From contig NC_079169.1 of assembly GCF_947568905.1 (NCBI RefSeq), positions 25,048,001 to 25,112,000 of the forward strand: a stretch of 64,000 nt of DNA, written 5' to 3'. Origin of the DNA: Ostrea edulis. Lineage: Eukaryota. The translations under genes were made by a program, and so were the position numbers. The notes below the pieces were generated by a model. The model searched no databases, was not told where the DNA came from, and saw only the letters and a list, made by a program, of their open reading frames with translations. Below, piece after piece: positions 24,307 through 38,396 of the stretch (within the stretch, counting starts at the first letter, position 1; every line of letters starts with the position of its first letter).

Positions 24307-24667
24307 AATTGGTACCGTATAAGTTTTACATTATGACCCCTGGGTCGAGGCCTCTGCTGGTGGACTGTTAGTCCCCGAGGCTCTCTACAGCCCAGTAGCT
24401 AAGTACTTCGTTACTAGCTTGAAAATACGGATGTATATTTAATTGCTGTTAAAAAATTTAGAATTAAGGATTATCTCCCTCATGCATAGCTCTTATCCTT
24501 GGACGAATTTGGCTCCACTTTTTTGGCACGCTGGTTTTGGCTATATTTAGCTCTAAAACTTCATAGTTATTTCGGATTTCAAACATTTCGGTTGAGCATC
24601 ACTGAAGATACATTATTTGTCGAAATGCGCATCTGGTGCATCAAAATTGGTACCGTACAAGTTTTAT
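24307..24667 (+). mobile_element. Non-LTR retrozyme-like repeat (338-nt monomer plus terminal redundancy), copy 1
   Basis: Direct repeat AATTGGTACCGTA(T/C)AAGTTTTA at 24307 and 24645 (period 338); near-identical to 28999-29290; contains a hammerhead at 24596-24639. Confidence 0.8.
24596..24639 (+). ncRNA. Minimal type I hammerhead ribozyme (stem II first pair mutated)
   Basis: GCAUCA-CUGAAGA-uACA-uuauu-UGUC-GAA-AUGCGCAU-C^-UGGUGC; the G-to-T change at 24609 breaks the first stem II pair. Confidence 0.75.
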
Positions 24668-28998: not shown

Positions 28999-29290
28999 CC
29001 AGTAGCTTAGTACTTCGTTACTAGCTTGAAAATACGGATGTATATTTAATTGCTGTTATAAAATTTAGAAATTCATTTCAAAATTAAGGATTATCTCCCT
29101 CGTGCATAGCTCTTATCCTTGGACGAATTTGGCTCCACTTTTTTGGCACGCTCTTTTTGGCTATATTTAGCTCCAAAACTTCATAGTTATTTTGGATTTC
29201 AAACATTTCGGTTGAGCATCACTGAAGAGACATTATTTGTCGAAATGCGCATCTGGTGCATCAAAATTGGTACCGTATACGTTTTACACT
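28999..29290 (+). mobile_element. Retrozyme-like repeat, copy 2 (5'-truncated)
   Basis: Near-identical to 24390-24667; ends with the same AATTGGTACCGTATA.GTTTTACA motif. Confidence 0.8.
29216..29259 (+). ncRNA. Minimal type I hammerhead ribozyme (intact consensus)
   Basis: Stem I GCAUCA/UGGUGC, core CUGAAGA, stem II GACA/UGUC with UUAUU loop, GAAA, palindromic stem III AUGCGCAU; predicted cleavage after AUC at 29253. Confidence 0.85.
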
Positions 29291-29809: not shown

Positions 29810-30401
29810 CTTAGTGTATGTCAATTTTAAAAAATATCTATACATGGTCTCCGAACAAAAAACTTGATATTTATTATCCTGCTTTATGACGAATCAATGA
29901 TTTATATGCCAATGAAACTAGAGCTTTCTCCCCGTGTCAGAGGTACAGGAAACCACTCCGACTTTAAATGAAATTTACTTACTTACCCCATTACATACGC
30001 GTGCAACATCTAATTTTGAAGATTTAGTCTTTACTGAACGTATTTTCGACCTCGGATGATGAAGACGTGTTTTCGTAACATTTTTAAAGTTTTGGACCAT
30101 TATAGTTGTTTGGGCGTACAAGCTTAAAATTGATTGTAAGGTCGGGCAATGTTTGTAAAAACCGGATAGAGGTGTTTGCAAAAACTGCACTTGCATACAT
30201 TTACCCTGTCGCACCCTGTCTTGTCGACGCTCCGTTGGACGCGGTGTCTATAATATTATCTTCAGGTAAACAAAATAAACCTACTACTTCATTTAGTAAT
30301 GTAACGTTTCTGGGTTCGAAGATTCGGTTGCTCTGTCTGAGCAATTTGAGGAATAATGAAATAAATGATAAAGCTCTCAATCAAGTATTTTAATTAAAAA
30401 A

Positions 30402-30731
30402 TGTACAAATATCCTATTCAGTCCTGGAGCGCGTGCGCTTCCTAACTAAGTCAAATAGCATTCACACCTTTCGTAATAAAAACAACAAAGTCTCGAAAGC
30501 CTTATACAGGCACGTAAGACTTGTTAACCAAGTTTGATTTCTCACCTAAGCTGTATACAGGACTAACTCTGGTCGACTTCAGTCTGGAACTGACTAAGAG
30601 CTCTGATGTCGCTGCTTTTATACCCTAATTAATCAAGTGATCCCGGGGGATCTAAAGGGTGCAACAAACAGGAAGTACTTGCTCCACATACAGAATGGGA
30701 TAAATTGATTTCGATTCCTACTTTTGTTTCA
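30402..30731 (-). repeat. Putative 3' LTR (~330 bp) of the Gypsy element
   Basis: On the minus strand it follows GGGACGCATTCCTGGAAGCGTGGGTAA, begins TGAAAC, contains GGGTATAAAAG (TATA-like) and ends TGTACA; there is no second copy in the window to confirm it. Confidence 0.55.
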
Positions 30732-31139
30732 TTACCCACGCTTCCAGGAATGCGTCCCGCATTTAAAATCATTAACAACCTGGGCTAAGAATGTAATGCG
30801 TGGTATCTGACCAAAAATACAACAACAAGCTTAAGCTACTTGGCTTTCATTTTTATATGATTAAATACTGACGTACAGAGTATGCGCTAAAGAAAAATCA
30901 CTAACAATGCTCATTATTAATTTTCAAGGAAAAATAGTCAGAAAACAATCAACCAATGATTCAGAAATGGTGCAATCACCACCGATATCAAACATAATAA
31001 TTACAAAAATACAAATGTCAGAAAAATAATTGGCATGAGATTCTTCCTAAAACCAGTTTTCCTCCTCATGCACTTCAACAACTGTTCTCCCATCTTTCTG
31101 GTATGTCTCCTGCACCCTGTCTAGTCTACGTCGTTTCTC

Positions 31140-31727
31140 TCACTCAGTTTGTGTACACATCTCTGCACAATCCGTAACTGTCAGGGTACTGGCATCAACT
31201 AGCTGACGATATGTCTGTGTACTTGCTTCCCGAGATATACATGAAAATTGTGCGGAAGGCACATTCAACTGAATTGAAACGCGTTTCCTGGGAATAGTCA
31301 TCGGATGTTGGAATGGTGCTGGAGCACATGTCGTCCGGGGGTCTTGGCATGCTATGGATTTTAAAACTGGCGCTGAGACCGGAGCTGGTCTTGTTGGCTT
31401 CCTCTGGCAGACTTCGTCAGTAGGACAGTTCTGAGATGTGCTCCCAACCACATCAGATAGGTTCCCTGGGTCCAACTGCTCCCAGTCATCTGTGCCGCTA
31501 TCAGCTGTCGTCAAAACCATCTCACCATGTCGAGTGCGGCGATGTCTTCCCAAGTCACTTTTCTTGTTTGTGGCATAGTCACAATCGACGCATTCAAATT
31601 TCTTCTGCCTCCGCTGTCTACCACATTCCACCACATGTCTCTCCCACTCAGTCTCATTCAATATCCTTAGGTTACACATCGGACATCGATGGCCTTCTTT
31701 TCTAGAAGTCGTCTTTGTATTTACCAT
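31140..31727 (-). CDS. Accessory ORF3 of the Gypsy element: two C2H2-type zinc fingers plus a low-complexity tail
   Basis: HRCPMCNLRILNETEWERHVVEC and FECVDCDYATNKKSDLGRHRRTRH; starts 118 nt after the pol stop on the same strand. A likely ancestral extension runs to 31047 (..EKRRRLDRVQETYQKDGEQ/VEVHEEENWF*) through one stop and one frameshift. Confidence 0.75.
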   Translation of the reverse strand: MVNTKTTSRKEGHRCPMCNLRILNETEWERHVVECGRQRRQKKFECVDCDYATNKKSDLGRHRRTRHGEMVLTTADSGTDDWEQLDPGNLSDVVGSTSQNCPTDEVCQRKPTRPAPVSAPVLKSIACQDPRTTCAPAPFQHPMTIPRKRVSIQLNVPSAQFSCISREASTQTYRQLVDASTLTVTDCAEMCTQTE

Positions 31728-31844
31728 GCTCTAACAAAATATAAGGAACACTTCAATTACTCTTATTTCAGTATTCATACAGCAGGTTTATATATACATA
31801 TATACACATATATTTACACATAAGCACAAGTTAATCTTAAAGCT

Positions 31845-34800
31845 CTAAGCGCTGTAATCAACTTCATAATCCTGAAGCCATTTGGGCGGGATTTTAGCGC
31901 GACGCGGTCTACTGTTCTCGCTTGTTTCAGTTTCCGCGCTTATTGTCCAAGGTTCTTCGAATTCAGCCACTGGAACATCAATGGGAGACTGCTGGTCTCC
32001 ATCTGGAGATTCATGCCTGTCACATACGTCTCTATCTGTTTCTCCTTGAAGTATTTGAGCATGGCTTTTTCTCATCCTATCACAATGTATGACAGTGTTT
32101 TCCCCTAGAGAACCGCATGCAACTGTATACAGTACATCAGATAGTTTTTTCTCGACTTTGTAGGGTCCCCTCCAAAACGAAGTCAGTTTAGGGGAGCAGC
32201 CACTCTTCCTGACTGGACAGTATACATATACCATTTCTCCTGGTTTAAAGGACGACCATGACAATTTGACATCATGGTATTTCTTTTGTCGCAGCATCTC
32301 CCCGGGCATGTTATCTCTTACAATTGCATGTGCTTGCTCCAGGCGCTCGCGCAATATCCAGATCCACTGGTGTGCTGGAGTGTCTTTCATCTCTGAAGAC
32401 ATTTCGTACATTAAATCTAGAGGCGTTGTTGCCTCTCTTCCAAGCATTAACATGTTGGGAGAAAACCCGGTGCTTTCATGTACTGTGGAGCGATATGCCA
32501 TGAGTATGTAGGGAAGGTGCAAGTCCCAATCTCTCTGATTCTCTTGAATATAGGCGCTCAGCATTGATATTAAAGTGCGGTTGAAGCGCTCAACCATACC
32601 ATCCGATTTTGGATGGTAGGGTGTAGTCGTTGTTTTAGTGATTCCCAGTAGCCGACACATTTTCAAAAATACTTTGCTCTCATACTGTCGCCCTTGATCT
32701 GAATAGATAACGGAAGGAACGCCAAATCTTACTATTATCTGTTCCATAATCGTTCGAGCTATAGATTCCGCCTCCATATTTGGAAGAGCAAAAGCCTCCG
32801 TTTATTTCGTGAAATAATCTGACACGACGAGAATATGACGATTCCCTCTGTCGGTTTCTGGTAGTTCACATAAAATATATGTGGCTATCCTTTCCATAGG
32901 TACACCTGATGCTGTGATCTGCATTGGAGCCCGTCGCTTTGGGATAGGATTCTTTCTTCTTGTACAGATATCACATCCTGCTATGTACTGGTGGACATCC
33001 CTTTGTAATCCCGGCCAGTAATATCTCTGTCTAATTCTGGCTAGTGTCTTTGTTACACCAAGATGTCCTGATGTCTTGTTATCATGGCTCATCTTTAATA
33101 CATTTCGCCTCTCTGAACTTGGAATGATAATCTGAAATGTCTCTCGATTTGAGGGGAGCAAAATCCATCGTCGTACTAAGAAGCCATCTCGAATGCTCAA
33201 TCTCTCAAATTGATTCCATAGTGACTTAATCACGTAACCATACTGTGAGACATTGGAAAATATTGGTCGTTTGCCTTCCTCAACCCAATGACGCACTAAA
33301 TGAATATCTCTGTCATCCTCCTGTGCTTCTAATAAATTTATATTGTCTCTATCAGACTCCTCTTGATTTACTTTTGAGGGCTACTGCACAATTCTCACTG
33401 ACTGATTAGGTTGTTCTTCCCAGTTGGGATGAAATCCACATTGTGTGCACGGAATTCTGCTGAGAGCATCCGCATTCCCATGCTTCCTACCTGGTCGGTG
33501 CTCTATCTTCATGTCGTAGGTGCTGATGACCTCAAGCCACCTAGCTAACTGGGCCTCTGGATTCTTGAATTTGAGAAGCTATTTCAGTGATCCGTGGTCT
33601 GTTCTAAGAAGAAACTGTCTCCCGTACAGATAATGACGGAATTGTTTTATAAAATGCACGACAGCCAACAATTCATTTCTCGTCACACAATATCGTTTCT
33701 CTGCTTTGGTTAATATGCGACTGGCATAAGCTATCACGCGCTCTTTTCCACCTACTTTTTGTGAAAGCACGGCACCTATAGAGTGGTTGCTCGCGTCTGT
33801 GTCAAGTATAAATGGCAAAGATACGTCTGGTATGTGCCAATATCGGTGCAGAAACCAATCTTTTACGAAGAGTCTCAAAAGCATCTTGTGTCTCTCTTGT
33901 CCATTGGAATTTACGTCCCTTTTCCGTCAAGCGGTGCAATAGCTTTGCTTCCATAGCAAAATCTTTAATAAATCGCCTATAATAACTGCACAACCCGAGG
34001 AAGGAGCGGACACCAGAGACACTTGACGGGACTGGCCATTCAGCAACTGTTTTAATCTTTTCTGGATCTGTCGCAATGCCTTCATTTGAAATAATATGTC
34101 CCAAGTATGATACTTCAGTGGCAAACAAGTTACACTTCCTTGCTTTTAATTTCAGACCCGCTTTTTGCAGTCTATCAAAAACTTTTTCGAGGTTGCTAAG
34201 CATATCTTCAAATGATTTCCCAATAACTATTTTATCGTCAAGATATACCAGGCACAAATCCCACCTGCAAGGACTGTCTCCATTAGACGTACAAAGGTCG
34301 CAGGCGCACAGGTTAGATCAAATGACATCACATTGAATTGAAATAGGCCTTTGCGTGTTACAAACGCTGTTTTACTCTTGTCCTCGTCGTCCATGGCCAC
34401 TTGCCAATATCCGCTGTTGAGGTCTAGCGTGGAGAATAAAGCATGTCCAGACAGGTGATCAAATGCTTCATCTATATTTGGGAGGGGATACGCGTCCTTA
34501 ATTGTTACTGCATTCAGTTGCCTATAATCAATGCAGAAGCGCATCGACCCATCTTTCTTGCGCACTAGAACCACAGGTGAAGCCCAAGGGCTGTTTGATG
34601 GTTCTATTACATCTTTTCCCATCATTTCGTTGACTTGTTTATCAACTTCCTGTAAAAGATGCAATGGGATTATCCGTGCTCTGTGCTTAATTGGTTTCTC
34701 AGTAGGACTAGTATTGATTTTGTGCTTTACAACTGTAGTTCGACCAAGATCAAAATTCGAGGTAGCAAACAAAGTTTGATATTTATGCAGAAATTTTTCT

Positions 34801-35592
34801 GCTTGCGCAGCTTGTGCACACGACAGATTTTTCATACATCGATCTAGTAATTTTTGCACATCAGATCGGAGTCCTACACCATGTTCTCGTACTGTTTCTG
34901 GTGTGTTCTCTTCATCAGCAGCTGTCATTTTAGCTATCATCGTTCCCTTGTATATCTGTTGGATTTCATCTGTAATATTCATAAGTCGCACACGCAGTTT
35001 CGCCACCTTTTACCAATGTTCTCCCAACCAATGCACAGCCCTTCTCCAGAAATTTTGCTTTTGGCTCAACTATGTAATCTGAGCTTCCGAATGTATTTTG
35101 CACTGCAATTCTAGCCTCGGTAACTAATTCACTTCTAGGGGGGATAGAAATGTCATTAGCTGCAACGACACGGTAACAGCCCATGACTCCTTCACATGAA
35201 ATGTGATATTCCTTGTTGTTTAGTCTCAAAGTGTTAGAGTTGAGATCTATAACGCCATTCCCTTTCTTCAAAAAGTCTAAGCCAAGGATACCTTCGACTG
35301 TGATGTCTGTTACCATAGCTGGAATAATTGTTTCAAACTTTCCTATTCGGATCTGATACTCTCATTTTCCATAATGCGATAGTGCGTTTCCACTTGCATT
35401 GAAAACTTTCTGCGCACTCTCTTCTAATTCAGGTCGATTTTCCTGCTCTATCATATTGTGCAGTCTCTTTGAAAGTAATGTTAATGAAGCCCCTGTATCG
35501 ATTAACAGTTTTGTGCGTGTACCATTAACAACAGCCTCAATAAATATACCAGCCTCATTACTCATGGTGCTTCCATCCACGTGTCCTTGCAT
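31845..35592 (-). pseudogene. pol: Gypsy pol (protease, RT, RNase H, integrase), disrupted
   Basis: LIDTGASLTL (PR); SPWASPVVLVRKKDGSMRFCIDYRQLN, VYLDD (RT); FILDTDAS (RH); HDNKTSGHLG..CDIC, SDQGRQYE, GMVERFNRT, WRGPY (IN). Split across several ORFs. Confidence 0.95.
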
Positions 35593-35604
35593 GCGTTGAT
35601 TTCT

Positions 35605-36873
35605 TCAGCGCTTACTACGAATTCGCCGCGCACTCCCACTATTTGTTTTCTCCGTTGGGCTATTACTGGTTTTATTTGTGTCTTGATTCCTTAGTTTCGG
35701 ACAATACCGACGAATATGCACCTTTTCCTTGCAATAATAACAAATCACCCCATCGCTAGTTTTCTTATCTTTCAACTGTGATGTGTTTTTTCTTTGCCTC
35801 CAACTCTGATCTTGGACCTGTTTTTCCAATTCATCTAGCTGAGTTTGCATCGTTGGCATCAGGTCTATTAGTTCTAATGGCTGTGCGGTTTTTACATGAT
35901 CGCGTTCTGTACTCTCAACCATCCGCAAATCGCCTCGCCTCTCCGTTTTATAGTAGGCATCCAACTCTACTGCAAGCCGTATCGCATCATCAAGAGTTAC
36001 GGGTCTACTCTGTTTAATGCGTAAGCGCATATCCGAATTAACTAAGGCATCAATGAACGCATCTTTCCCCAATGTTTCCCGAACTTCCGACGGCGCTGTA
36101 GGGTAAGCTAGACAAGTTAGTCTACGGATAGCCTGTCCCAGTTCAGACAATGTCTCAGATGCCCTTTGTTTTCGTTCTTTTAACTGCGCACGGTATAACT
36201 CAGTCTGACTGGGTGGCGCAAAGCGTTCTTGTAGCGCCTTGACCAGCAAATCATACTGGTGTCCTGTTTCTTTTGAAACATTCCCAAGTACGCCCTATGC
36301 CGTTCCTCTTAGTGAAACAGCCAAGTAAAGACCTTTCTCTTTCTCTGATCAGTTGTTTATGGTAGCGCATGCGTCAAAATGGGATTTATAGTCCAGCCAA
36401 GATTGACTGCCATCAAATGTTGCAGGTTTGATATTGCACTTTGAACTTTTATTGGTTTGATCTATTTCATCCATGTGCCGTTTAACATTCAGCGAGTTTC
36501 TGACACCTGCATCCAAACTCTGTGCCTGCGCGATTCCCTGTCTTGTATTTGGCGCACTCAGTAGTGGAGCATTGTAATCAATCGGCGCACTCGCAATCAA
36601 CGGCGCATTTGCAATTATCGGCGCACTCTCAATCGACGGTGCACTAGCAATCGACGGTGCACTTGCAAATGTCGGCGCACTTGCAAATGTTGGCGCATTC
36701 GCAATCGACGGCGCACAAGCAATCAACGGCGCACTTGCAAATATCGGCGCACTCGCAATCGGTGGCATGCGCGCAGTCTGCTGTGCTTCTACCATTAATC
36801 TATGCTCATTATCGTCAACAGAATAATTATCACAATTTGAGTTTGTTTTATAATGCTTGTTATGGCGTTCCAT
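35605..36873 (-). pseudogene. gag: Gypsy gag with CCHC knuckle and 18-bp repeat, two in-frame stops
   Basis: KPATFDG..W.DY..HF..CA..N, LYLAVSLRG, ERFAPPSQTELYRAQL, CYYCKEKVHIRRYCP. Confidence 0.9.
36580..36775 (-). repeat. 18-bp coding tandem repeat (~11 x AP-x-[IF]-A-[SN]) in the gag N-terminus
   Basis: PPIASAPIFASAPLIACAPSIANAPTFASAPTFASAPSIASAPSIESAPIIANAPLIASAPIDYNAPLLSAP. Confidence 0.9.
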
Positions 36874-37604: not shown

Positions 37605-38396
37605 TTTAGCTTTAGTCGGGTACACGTGTAATCGTCTGTAAATTCATATTTTTGTTTTGTTTTTGTGTGTATGCGTGTTGTTGTGTGCATGCGTGTGTAT
37701 GAGTGTAGATGTTACTTGCTATATTAGTGAGCACGATAATAAACTTATTTGCACATACTCTTGATCTTTCTTCAAAGAACGGTTTGCAGCGAGGGATTAT
37801 TTCCATGCCATTATCACAAATTGTGACAATAGTTATGCAGTGTATCTGCAATTTCGGCTTCATTTCTGCAAGTTTTCTTTTGCGCTTTGGCAGGCCTCAT
37901 TGTAACATGAGTCTTGTCTGTACTTTCCTCGATGGCGCGTCCGCTTCGCTCATTCCTCTGCAATATTACTGTATCATCCGCTGTAGATGACTGTAAGTGA
38001 CCCTGGCCTCCACTTGCACCAACCATAGCACAGGTGCTGGTGGACAAGACTTCCGGTACCCCCCTTCTTGTATTTTTAAATGTTCAATTCCTTGGGTATT
38101 TCGGACGTATTTTATCAGAGTTTATATATTTCAATGGAATACACAAATCTCGCATAGAAACCGTTTTTAAAAATGTCATATCACCGATCATTATTTAAAA
38201 ACGTAAGATCGCCCCTAAATATTTTGAAAGAAACCACTAACGGTGTTCCGTATTTGACGTAAAGTTCTACAACACGAGCAAGGTAAGTGCTTGGCACAAG
38301 TTTAAACATGTTTATTTACAGTTACATTCGTCATAATTGGTCTATTTAAAAATGTTTGAATACTACAAGGTTATTGTCGTATCATTATACGTTGTC

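Follow-up and report, generated by a model that had tools for sequence, protein, structure and literature searches.

The 64,000-nucleotide stretch of Ostrea edulis DNA analysed here (hereafter, the window) carries a Ty3/Gypsy retrotransposon on its minus strand. Pfam matches to gag, protease, reverse transcriptase, RNase H and integrase follow one another in the Gypsy order from 36830 to 31845 (Table 1). The element retains only its 3′ LTR; its 5′ end is missing, and no 5′ LTR was found in the 64-kb window. At 31727, 117 nt past the integrase stop and ahead of the 432-bp LTR, a further open reading frame (ORF3) opens with an ATG on the same strand as gag-pol. The first-pass annotation had described it as an extra ORF of 195 codons in the env position. 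Its strand and its place between integrase and LTR stand, but the true gene has 226 codons and is cut short by an in-frame TGA. Four near copies (L002–L005) have no stop at that codon, three of them being broken at other sites; the window copy is therefore broken, and programmed read-through of the stop was ruled out on the same ground. The EEENWF end suggested for the protein is in frame, at 31047, but it sits past the in-frame stop (31142–31140).

Table 1. The Gypsy element and its ORF3: features and positions within the window
Feature	Position	Strand	Remark
3′ LTR, TG...CA	30300..30731	-	432 bp; purine-rich tract precedes
ORF3, 226 codons, broken by one in-frame stop	31047..31727	-	
Predicted C-terminal beta-hairpin, past the stop in the window copy	31053..31130	-	folded on a natural near copy
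In-frame TGA, cuts the window copy at 195 aa	31140..31142	-	absent in near copies L002–L005
Conserved LC8-type QT motif (putative)	31143..31166	-	Q193, T194 invariant in 31/31 rows
First LC8-type TQT motif (putative), family-specific	31209..31232	-	
R-K-x-T-x-P motif	31386..31403	-	R109, K110, T112, P114 conserved ≥90%
Acidic W-x3-DPG-x-L motif	31458..31484	-	DPG-like in 24/26 families, loose pattern
C2H2 finger (C46, C49, H62, H67)	31527..31592	-	
C2HC finger (C15, C18, H31, C35 invariant)	31623..31685	-	
N-terminal arm, histone H3 register	31698..31724	-	5/9 identical in window copy
Pyrimidine-rich tract + AG splice acceptor	31731..31751	-	3 nt 5′ of ATG; homologous acceptors used in four processed copies
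Integrase (H2C2, rve, C-terminal domain), broken	31845..33380	-	
Reverse transcriptase + RNase H, broken	33579..35009	-	
Aspartic protease + linker, broken	35010..35604	-	
gag main part, 18-bp tandem repeat inside, broken	35605..36830	-	
gag 5′ piece	37828..38028	-	~1 kb of unrelated DNA between piece and main gag

The further claim that ORF3 is better preserved than gag and pol did not survive closer counting. One break in 226 codons, set against seven stops and about three frame changes in the ~1,500 codons of gag-pol, corresponds to the same rate of decay. Comparison of the window ORF3 with a near copy gave a pN/pS of 0.88 (12 non-synonymous and four synonymous changes). The window copy is dead.

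The window holds several other repeats. The 18-bp tandem repeat in gag (36565–36786) encodes a six-residue Ala/Pro-rich repeat and varies in copy number in public reads. From ~7000 onward a 28-bp satellite array of ~209 registers extends over several kb, and a 280-bp repeat occurs twice (24392–24666 and 28999–29286). Several minus-strand pieces between 23600 and 28800 resemble non-LTR retrotransposon reverse transcriptase, as judged by eye. ARAGORN calls a tRNA-Leu at 41229–41302, with a degenerate second copy close by; this is probably a tRNA-derived repeat.

ORF3 is the third gene of a Gypsy clade

The 895-Mb genome of the same species was searched for ORF3, which gave 142 matches from the 150 candidates scored (of 259), representing at least 136 distinct loci; 10 kb was fetched around each of the 135 loci outside the window. 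Among the 136 ORF3 loci listed, 112 have a same-strand integrase that ends no more than 700 bp upstream, 129 have some gag or pol sequence upstream, and 94 are enclosed with their unit by an LTR pair (≥300 bp). Grouped at 70% identity, the 68 near-full ORF3s make up 26 families. For the reverse test the best 150 integrase matches were taken (150 of 2,107 candidates scored). Eighty-four of these were ORF3 loci already, and 60 of the other 66 were fetched, hence 144 of the 150 were examined. The ORF3 profile matched 39 of the 60 newly fetched loci, so that ORF3 is present in 123 of the 144 examined loci among these best 150 of 2,107 candidates. All 21 integrase loci without ORF3 are at least 93% identical over the integrase to ORF3-bearing copies, and deletions, truncations or an N gap are seen in them, except where a known locus had come up a second time. 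Around integrases recovered by a generic search, a small control with a short flank, the ORF3 profile was found within 1.5 kb at 0 of 30 loci.

The integrase tree places the 22 ORF3 families with a usable integrase (four of the 26 had none) on one branch with 95/92 support, apart from 26 other integrases; three of the 30 control loci were too short to be included, the tree contains one long row (L099), and long-branch warnings were raised among the outgroups. The ORF3 branch also takes in one control row, L289, a clade member whose ORF3 is deleted. The first-pass annotation had supposed that ORF3 is encoded by the element, and had named as the contrary outcomes that other copies lack the ORF or that its homologues are unlinked to LTR elements; the tests of both failed to refute it, and the supposition is borne out by linkage in both directions. 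ORF3 is the third gene of the whole Gypsy clade, and chance insertion was rejected by the two-way integrase/LTR linkage together with the purifying selection described below.

In several families a PBS-like TGGTGGCAGC, assigned to tRNA-Leu, is visible 3′ of the 5′ LTR, as are 4–5 bp target duplications. Some copies are young: 41 of 95 LTR pairs are at least 99% identical. The LTRs of 23 families have a common 3′ end resembling ACGTTACA, and the words GGGTATA and AATCATT are enriched in them; no shared target motif stood out in the family LTRs beyond TATA-like and AATCATT words. Three groups of ORF3-less loci have common deletion ends (L224, L242 and L246; L223, L228 and L239; L259 and L262), which suggests that ORF3-less derivatives were themselves copied. 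One locus, L076, holds an unbroken 235-aa ORF3 with its acceptor and has no gag or pol match within 7.6 kb and no LTR pair; it is a fragment or an orphan.

Across 11 family pairs, pS over the first 70 codons was 0.65–0.97 (near saturation) versus a pN of 0.15–0.28, and the pooled within-family pN/pS was 0.37, calculated over non-independent pairs. ORF3 is under purifying selection across the clade. Integrase and ORF3 have the same nearest neighbour in 13 of 21 families, and their distances correlate weakly (Mantel rho 0.16, p ~0.055; 276 of 5,000 permutations).

Multi-finger proteins crowded the results of a profile search over 1.84 billion proteins, and the taxonomic range that it gives is therefore a lower bound. 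Only about 31 of the top 150 hits were full-length relatives. The source names given for full-length relatives are Ostrea edulis, Saccostrea, Magallana gigas, Pinctada imbricata, Mizuhopecten, Argopecten and Pecten. ORF3 relatives thus occur in oysters, a pearl oyster and scallops, those outside O. edulis being known from protein records. Two clustered proteins (P0257, P0321) are fused integrase–ORF3 models. Identity with REST/NRSF, a large multi-finger host gene outside transposons, was rejected, as the identical 217- and 226-aa 'REST-like' proteins are ORF3s within LTR elements. The first-pass annotation had also proposed ORF3 as a possible source of new host zinc-finger genes; no domesticated copy could be demonstrated.

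ORF3 is expressed by splicing

A pyrimidine-rich tract followed by YAG lies within 25 nt of the ORF3 ATG in 20 of 26 families, compared with 277 of 5,320 ATGs elsewhere and 87 of 1,136 ATGs in flanks. In four copies from four families (L068, L090, L149, L161) a stretch is missing that opens with GT and ends exactly at the ORF3 acceptor AG. Reverse-transcribed spliced RNA leaves such a mark, and these copies are read as processed for that reason. Among the 77 deletion junctions of the first scan, only two of the 71 elsewhere are GT–AG. The deletions in L099 and L101 were rejected as splices, since their junctions stop a few bases short of the acceptor and have no GT. Furthermore, one contig of run X1, whose RNA nature is guessed, covers ORF3 from the acceptor onward, with an overhang of 22 bases that matches a host exon ending AG|GT. 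This exon is locus L211 (G000:C1:9129213–9129234, minus strand); its junction with the acceptor is possibly the result of exon trapping by an insertion absent from the assembly. Both the processed copies and the X1 contig join onto the acceptor, which therefore works. ORF3 is spliced like env: it combines an env-type position after pol with a spliced subgenomic mRNA. No donor was found for the main ORF3 mRNA; a good candidate follows the PBS in the window's family, and other families are without it. Reads mapped to a young family gave no RNA cover, which counts neither for nor against a donor, and none of the runs listed as containing the sequence is on record as RNA.

The phase between acceptor and ATG is mixed (11/6/3), and this favours a start at the conserved Met and argues against a fixed coding upstream exon. 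In two of the four processed copies (L068, L161) the protease linker runs in frame into ORF3. Such fusions recur in different families and data sets, through splicing in these two copies, through deletion in L099 and L101, and in the proteins P0231, P0232 and P0236. An alternative Gag-PR-ORF3 product is possible; because of the in-frame linker, the N-terminus of ORF3 would be blocked in it.

Fingers, QT motif and N-terminal arm

The C2HC and C2H2 fingers recognised in the first reading were both recovered in the window copy, as CX2CX12HX3C and CX2CX12HX4H (Pfam zf-H2C2_5, E 2e-5, below the curated cut-off). Across the clade ORF3 is 210–270 aa long, and the invariant residues in 31 aligned sequences are M1, K5, T7, C15, C18, H31, C35, C49, H62, Q193 and T194. 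Finger 2 has the classical pattern in 26 of 26 families, with K or R at −1 in 25 and R or K at +6 in all 26. Its beta-beta-alpha fold is predicted with pLDDT >90, and no TGEKP-type linker is present in the ORF3 alignment. Weak matches were obtained to Pfam zf-C2H2 in 25 of 31 rows and to zf-C2H2_jaz (dsRNA-binding) in 12 of 31. In the AlphaFold prediction the two fingers form a confident pair, the middle is disordered and a beta-hairpin stands alone at the C-terminus. The best Foldseek match of this model had an E of 0.004 with an rmsd of 6.5 Å or more, and none reached E 0.001. Structure and profile searches returned only C2H2 proteins, CTCF among them, and a protein atlas search only unnamed clusters and generic C2H2 proteins. 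A UBZ4-type ubiquitin finger was considered for finger 1 and rejected, as the Asp after His that we take to be its mark is absent.

The protein is not env, as the first reading had also held. It has no hydrophobic anchor (the highest 19-residue hydropathy is 0.37 in a near copy and at most 1.31 over the 26 families), and its N-terminus is polar and basic, so that the signal peptide and the transmembrane anchor of env appear to be absent and that identity was ruled out.

Near the C-terminus, a QT dipeptide occurs in 26 of 26 families (chance ~0.22 per protein). The commonest residues around the last QT are D at −4, G or A at −2, T, V or I at −1 and E or D at +2, and this context agrees with the published LC8 motif as described in PMC6607443; the same source reports that many TQT peptides fail to bind LC8. 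The form [TVIS]QT without Pro is found in 24 of 26 families and falls in a region of low pLDDT, as would suit an LC8 client. The window ORF3 has two QT motifs, most families have one or two, and the range is one to three. The initial guess that the TQT motifs resemble LC8 sites, offered then as speculation, gains support from this conservation and context at the level of sequence. The only full LC8-like match found, L208 (G000:C34:3771–4022), is intronless and lies on a small contig.

A likeness of the N-terminus to histone H3 was spotted by eye before testing. Residues were counted after the Met and compared with positions 1–9 of the host's own H3. Over 26 families, identity was found at T3 in 23, K4 in 25, T6 in 25, R8 in 17 and K9 in 19, and A1 was matched in six. 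The in-register identity has two exceptions, R2 and Q5, which were matched in 0 of 26 families and 0 of 30 library representatives. Mean identity over the families was 4.46 of 9 in register versus 0.35–0.54 when shifted, with 7 of 9 in the best family; the 30 library representatives, which partly overlap the families, gave a mean of 3.97. At least four identities occurred in only 7 of 3,146 background Met starts and in 1 of 116 multi-finger proteins. The 26 families are of common descent, and the H3 match therefore counts as one event and not as 26; it is best described as one striking coincidence that selection has maintained. In 26 of 26 families the Met is followed by Pro, Val or Ala, each of which permits its removal. 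In H3, R2 is important for LSD1, WDR5 and many PHD fingers. The arm is not a SNAG domain, which has Arg at position 2 and an aromatic residue at 4: Arg at 2 was seen in 0 of 26 families, and position 4 is Lys. T-P-x-K/R occurs in the arm of 10 of 26 families, so that the arm may instead serve as a CDK site or as a basic arm for DNA binding.

Known systems and possible functions

Non-env third ORFs are an already known kind. CERV of the C. elegans element Cer1 is, like ORF3, a non-env protein in the env position of a Gypsy element that is made from a spliced mRNA, and it is described as a nuclear regulator with a Cys-rich region (PMC10309623); the likeness of ORF3 to it in this latter respect is drawn from sequence. 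CERV differs in its 517 aa, its exons common with gag, its possible C4 finger and its restriction to Caenorhabditis as stated there, compared with the 210–270 aa, C2HC and C2H2 fingers, H3-like arm and QT motifs of ORF3. The ORF3s of bdelloid rotifer LTR elements also follow pol and are typically produced from spliced messages; those described are GDSL esterases, DEDDy exonucleases and transmembrane or coiled-coil proteins, each family-specific, and the word 'zinc' is absent from the available text (PMC5408684). The SNAG repressors Snail, Gfi1 and INSM1 are C2H2 proteins with an H3-mimicking extreme N-terminus, often with Pro after Met (PMC5896174). They are host genes, however, whereas the oyster ORF3 lacks Arg at 2, keeps K4 and T6 and has its fingers directly after the arm. 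ASCIZ/ATMIN, as described in PMC5963919, is a zinc-finger transcription factor whose disordered tail carries TQT motifs for LC8. ORF3 is like it in description, but has one to three such motifs where ASCIZ has many.

Oyster Gypsy elements are dominated by MolGy1, MolGy2 and the C-clade, with 23, 47 and 28 subfamilies in O. edulis, and the ORF3 clade is for this reason probably one of the three; as described, these groups are defined on RT/RNase H only (PMC6238403, PMC9679248). Neither 'ORF' nor 'zinc' occurs in the available text of these two mollusc LTR surveys, and neither 'zinc' nor 'ORF3' in that of PMC10294476, supplements aside in each case. The search of openly accessible papers returned no description of a C2H2 third ORF for these elements and none of a transposon-encoded H3 mimic; Repbase may list ORF3 unnamed. 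New here are the H3-register N-terminus of ORF3 and the QT motif in 26 of 26 families.

Our main reading, to which we assign a probability of roughly 0.5, is that the ORF3 protein is a nuclear chromatin regulator, dimerised by LC8, with its fingers on element DNA or RNA and its H3-like arm turned to chromatin factors. Translation would start at the conserved Met and the Met would be clipped, placing T3-K4-x-T6-x-R8-K9 in the register of H3. The arm might engage an H3K4/K9 reader, writer or eraser, by analogy with the SNAG arm of Snail and Gfi1, which engages LSD1. LC8 would pair two chains and so let the two-finger units bind with avidity, probably to the element's own LTR or RNA. The outcome would be to the element's advantage, most likely through relief or timing of germ-line silencing, with anti-silencing as the simplest benefit. 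ORF3 probably works in trans, because ORF3-less copies with common deletion ends appear to have been copied. A stronger version, in which the clade encodes an LC8-dimerised H3 mimic on zinc fingers that hijacks or jams the host's H3K4/K9 machinery and keeps the element active, is tentative, and we put it at somewhat short of even odds.

The same features could belong to a plain DNA-binding transactivator or repressor of the LTR, its arm being a minor-groove basic arm or a CDK site and the H3 likeness incidental. We regard this as an unlikely account, if one to be taken seriously: besides T-P-x-K/R, the arm has basic residues at 8–9, abuts finger 1 and never matches R2 or Q5, the fold and profile matches are to DNA-binding C2H2 proteins such as CTCF, and two fingers on their own bind weakly. 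GAGA-type proteins use basic arms of this kind. Such an arm has no need of two threonines, however, and conservation falls on T3, K4 and T6 as counted from the N-terminus, where the first residue is always small; the spacing to the first Cys is variable. The H3-register arm would be left unexplained if ORF3 bound RNA in the manner of Rev or CERV and served to export or package genomic RNA in unspliced form, LC8 being a transport link or oligomeriser. Position and spliced expression recall CERV (PMC10309623), a strong acceptor means that unspliced RNA must escape splicing, the weak zf-C2H2_jaz matches point the same way, and the in-frame protease-linker fusions could carry ORF3 into particles; yet its sequence and size are unlike those of CERV as described, the helix of finger 2 resembles a DNA reader, and we consider this role quite improbable.

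In Drosophila, transposon silencing guided by piRNAs cannot do without LC8 (PMC7861614), and ORF3 seems dispensable in cis, as might be expected of a decoy that soaks up LC8 or chromatin factors throughout the genome with no targeting of the element. LC8 is abundant, however, most families offer it one or two motifs, and the conserved fingers suggest targeting, which makes a decoy very unlikely. Panoramix is not known in molluscs. Next to no credence is due to the idea that ORF3 began as a chance capture of a host zinc-finger fragment and is passive cargo. Its fingers do resemble many host multi-finger proteins, and the window copy drifts neutrally, but saturated synonymous sites alongside conserved motifs over 26 families contradict it through the selection result, and ORF3 has its own acceptor and is present in the proteomes of three bivalve orders.

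Few regulatory proteins are known from animal LTR retrotransposons, and ORF3 is ancient, selected, spread over many families and still present in young copies. If the arm is an H3 mimic, ORF3 would be a transposon-encoded histone mimic, with histone mimicry as a counter-silencing weapon. ORF3s are deposited, in RefSeq among others, as oyster genes named 'RE1-silencing transcription factor-like' (REST-like) or 'Pegasus-like', and these misnomers can swell the counts of zinc-finger families and lead bivalve expression studies astray. One of the deposited proteins, P0107, bears the label of a bacterial symbiont and is probably host DNA in a metagenome bin.
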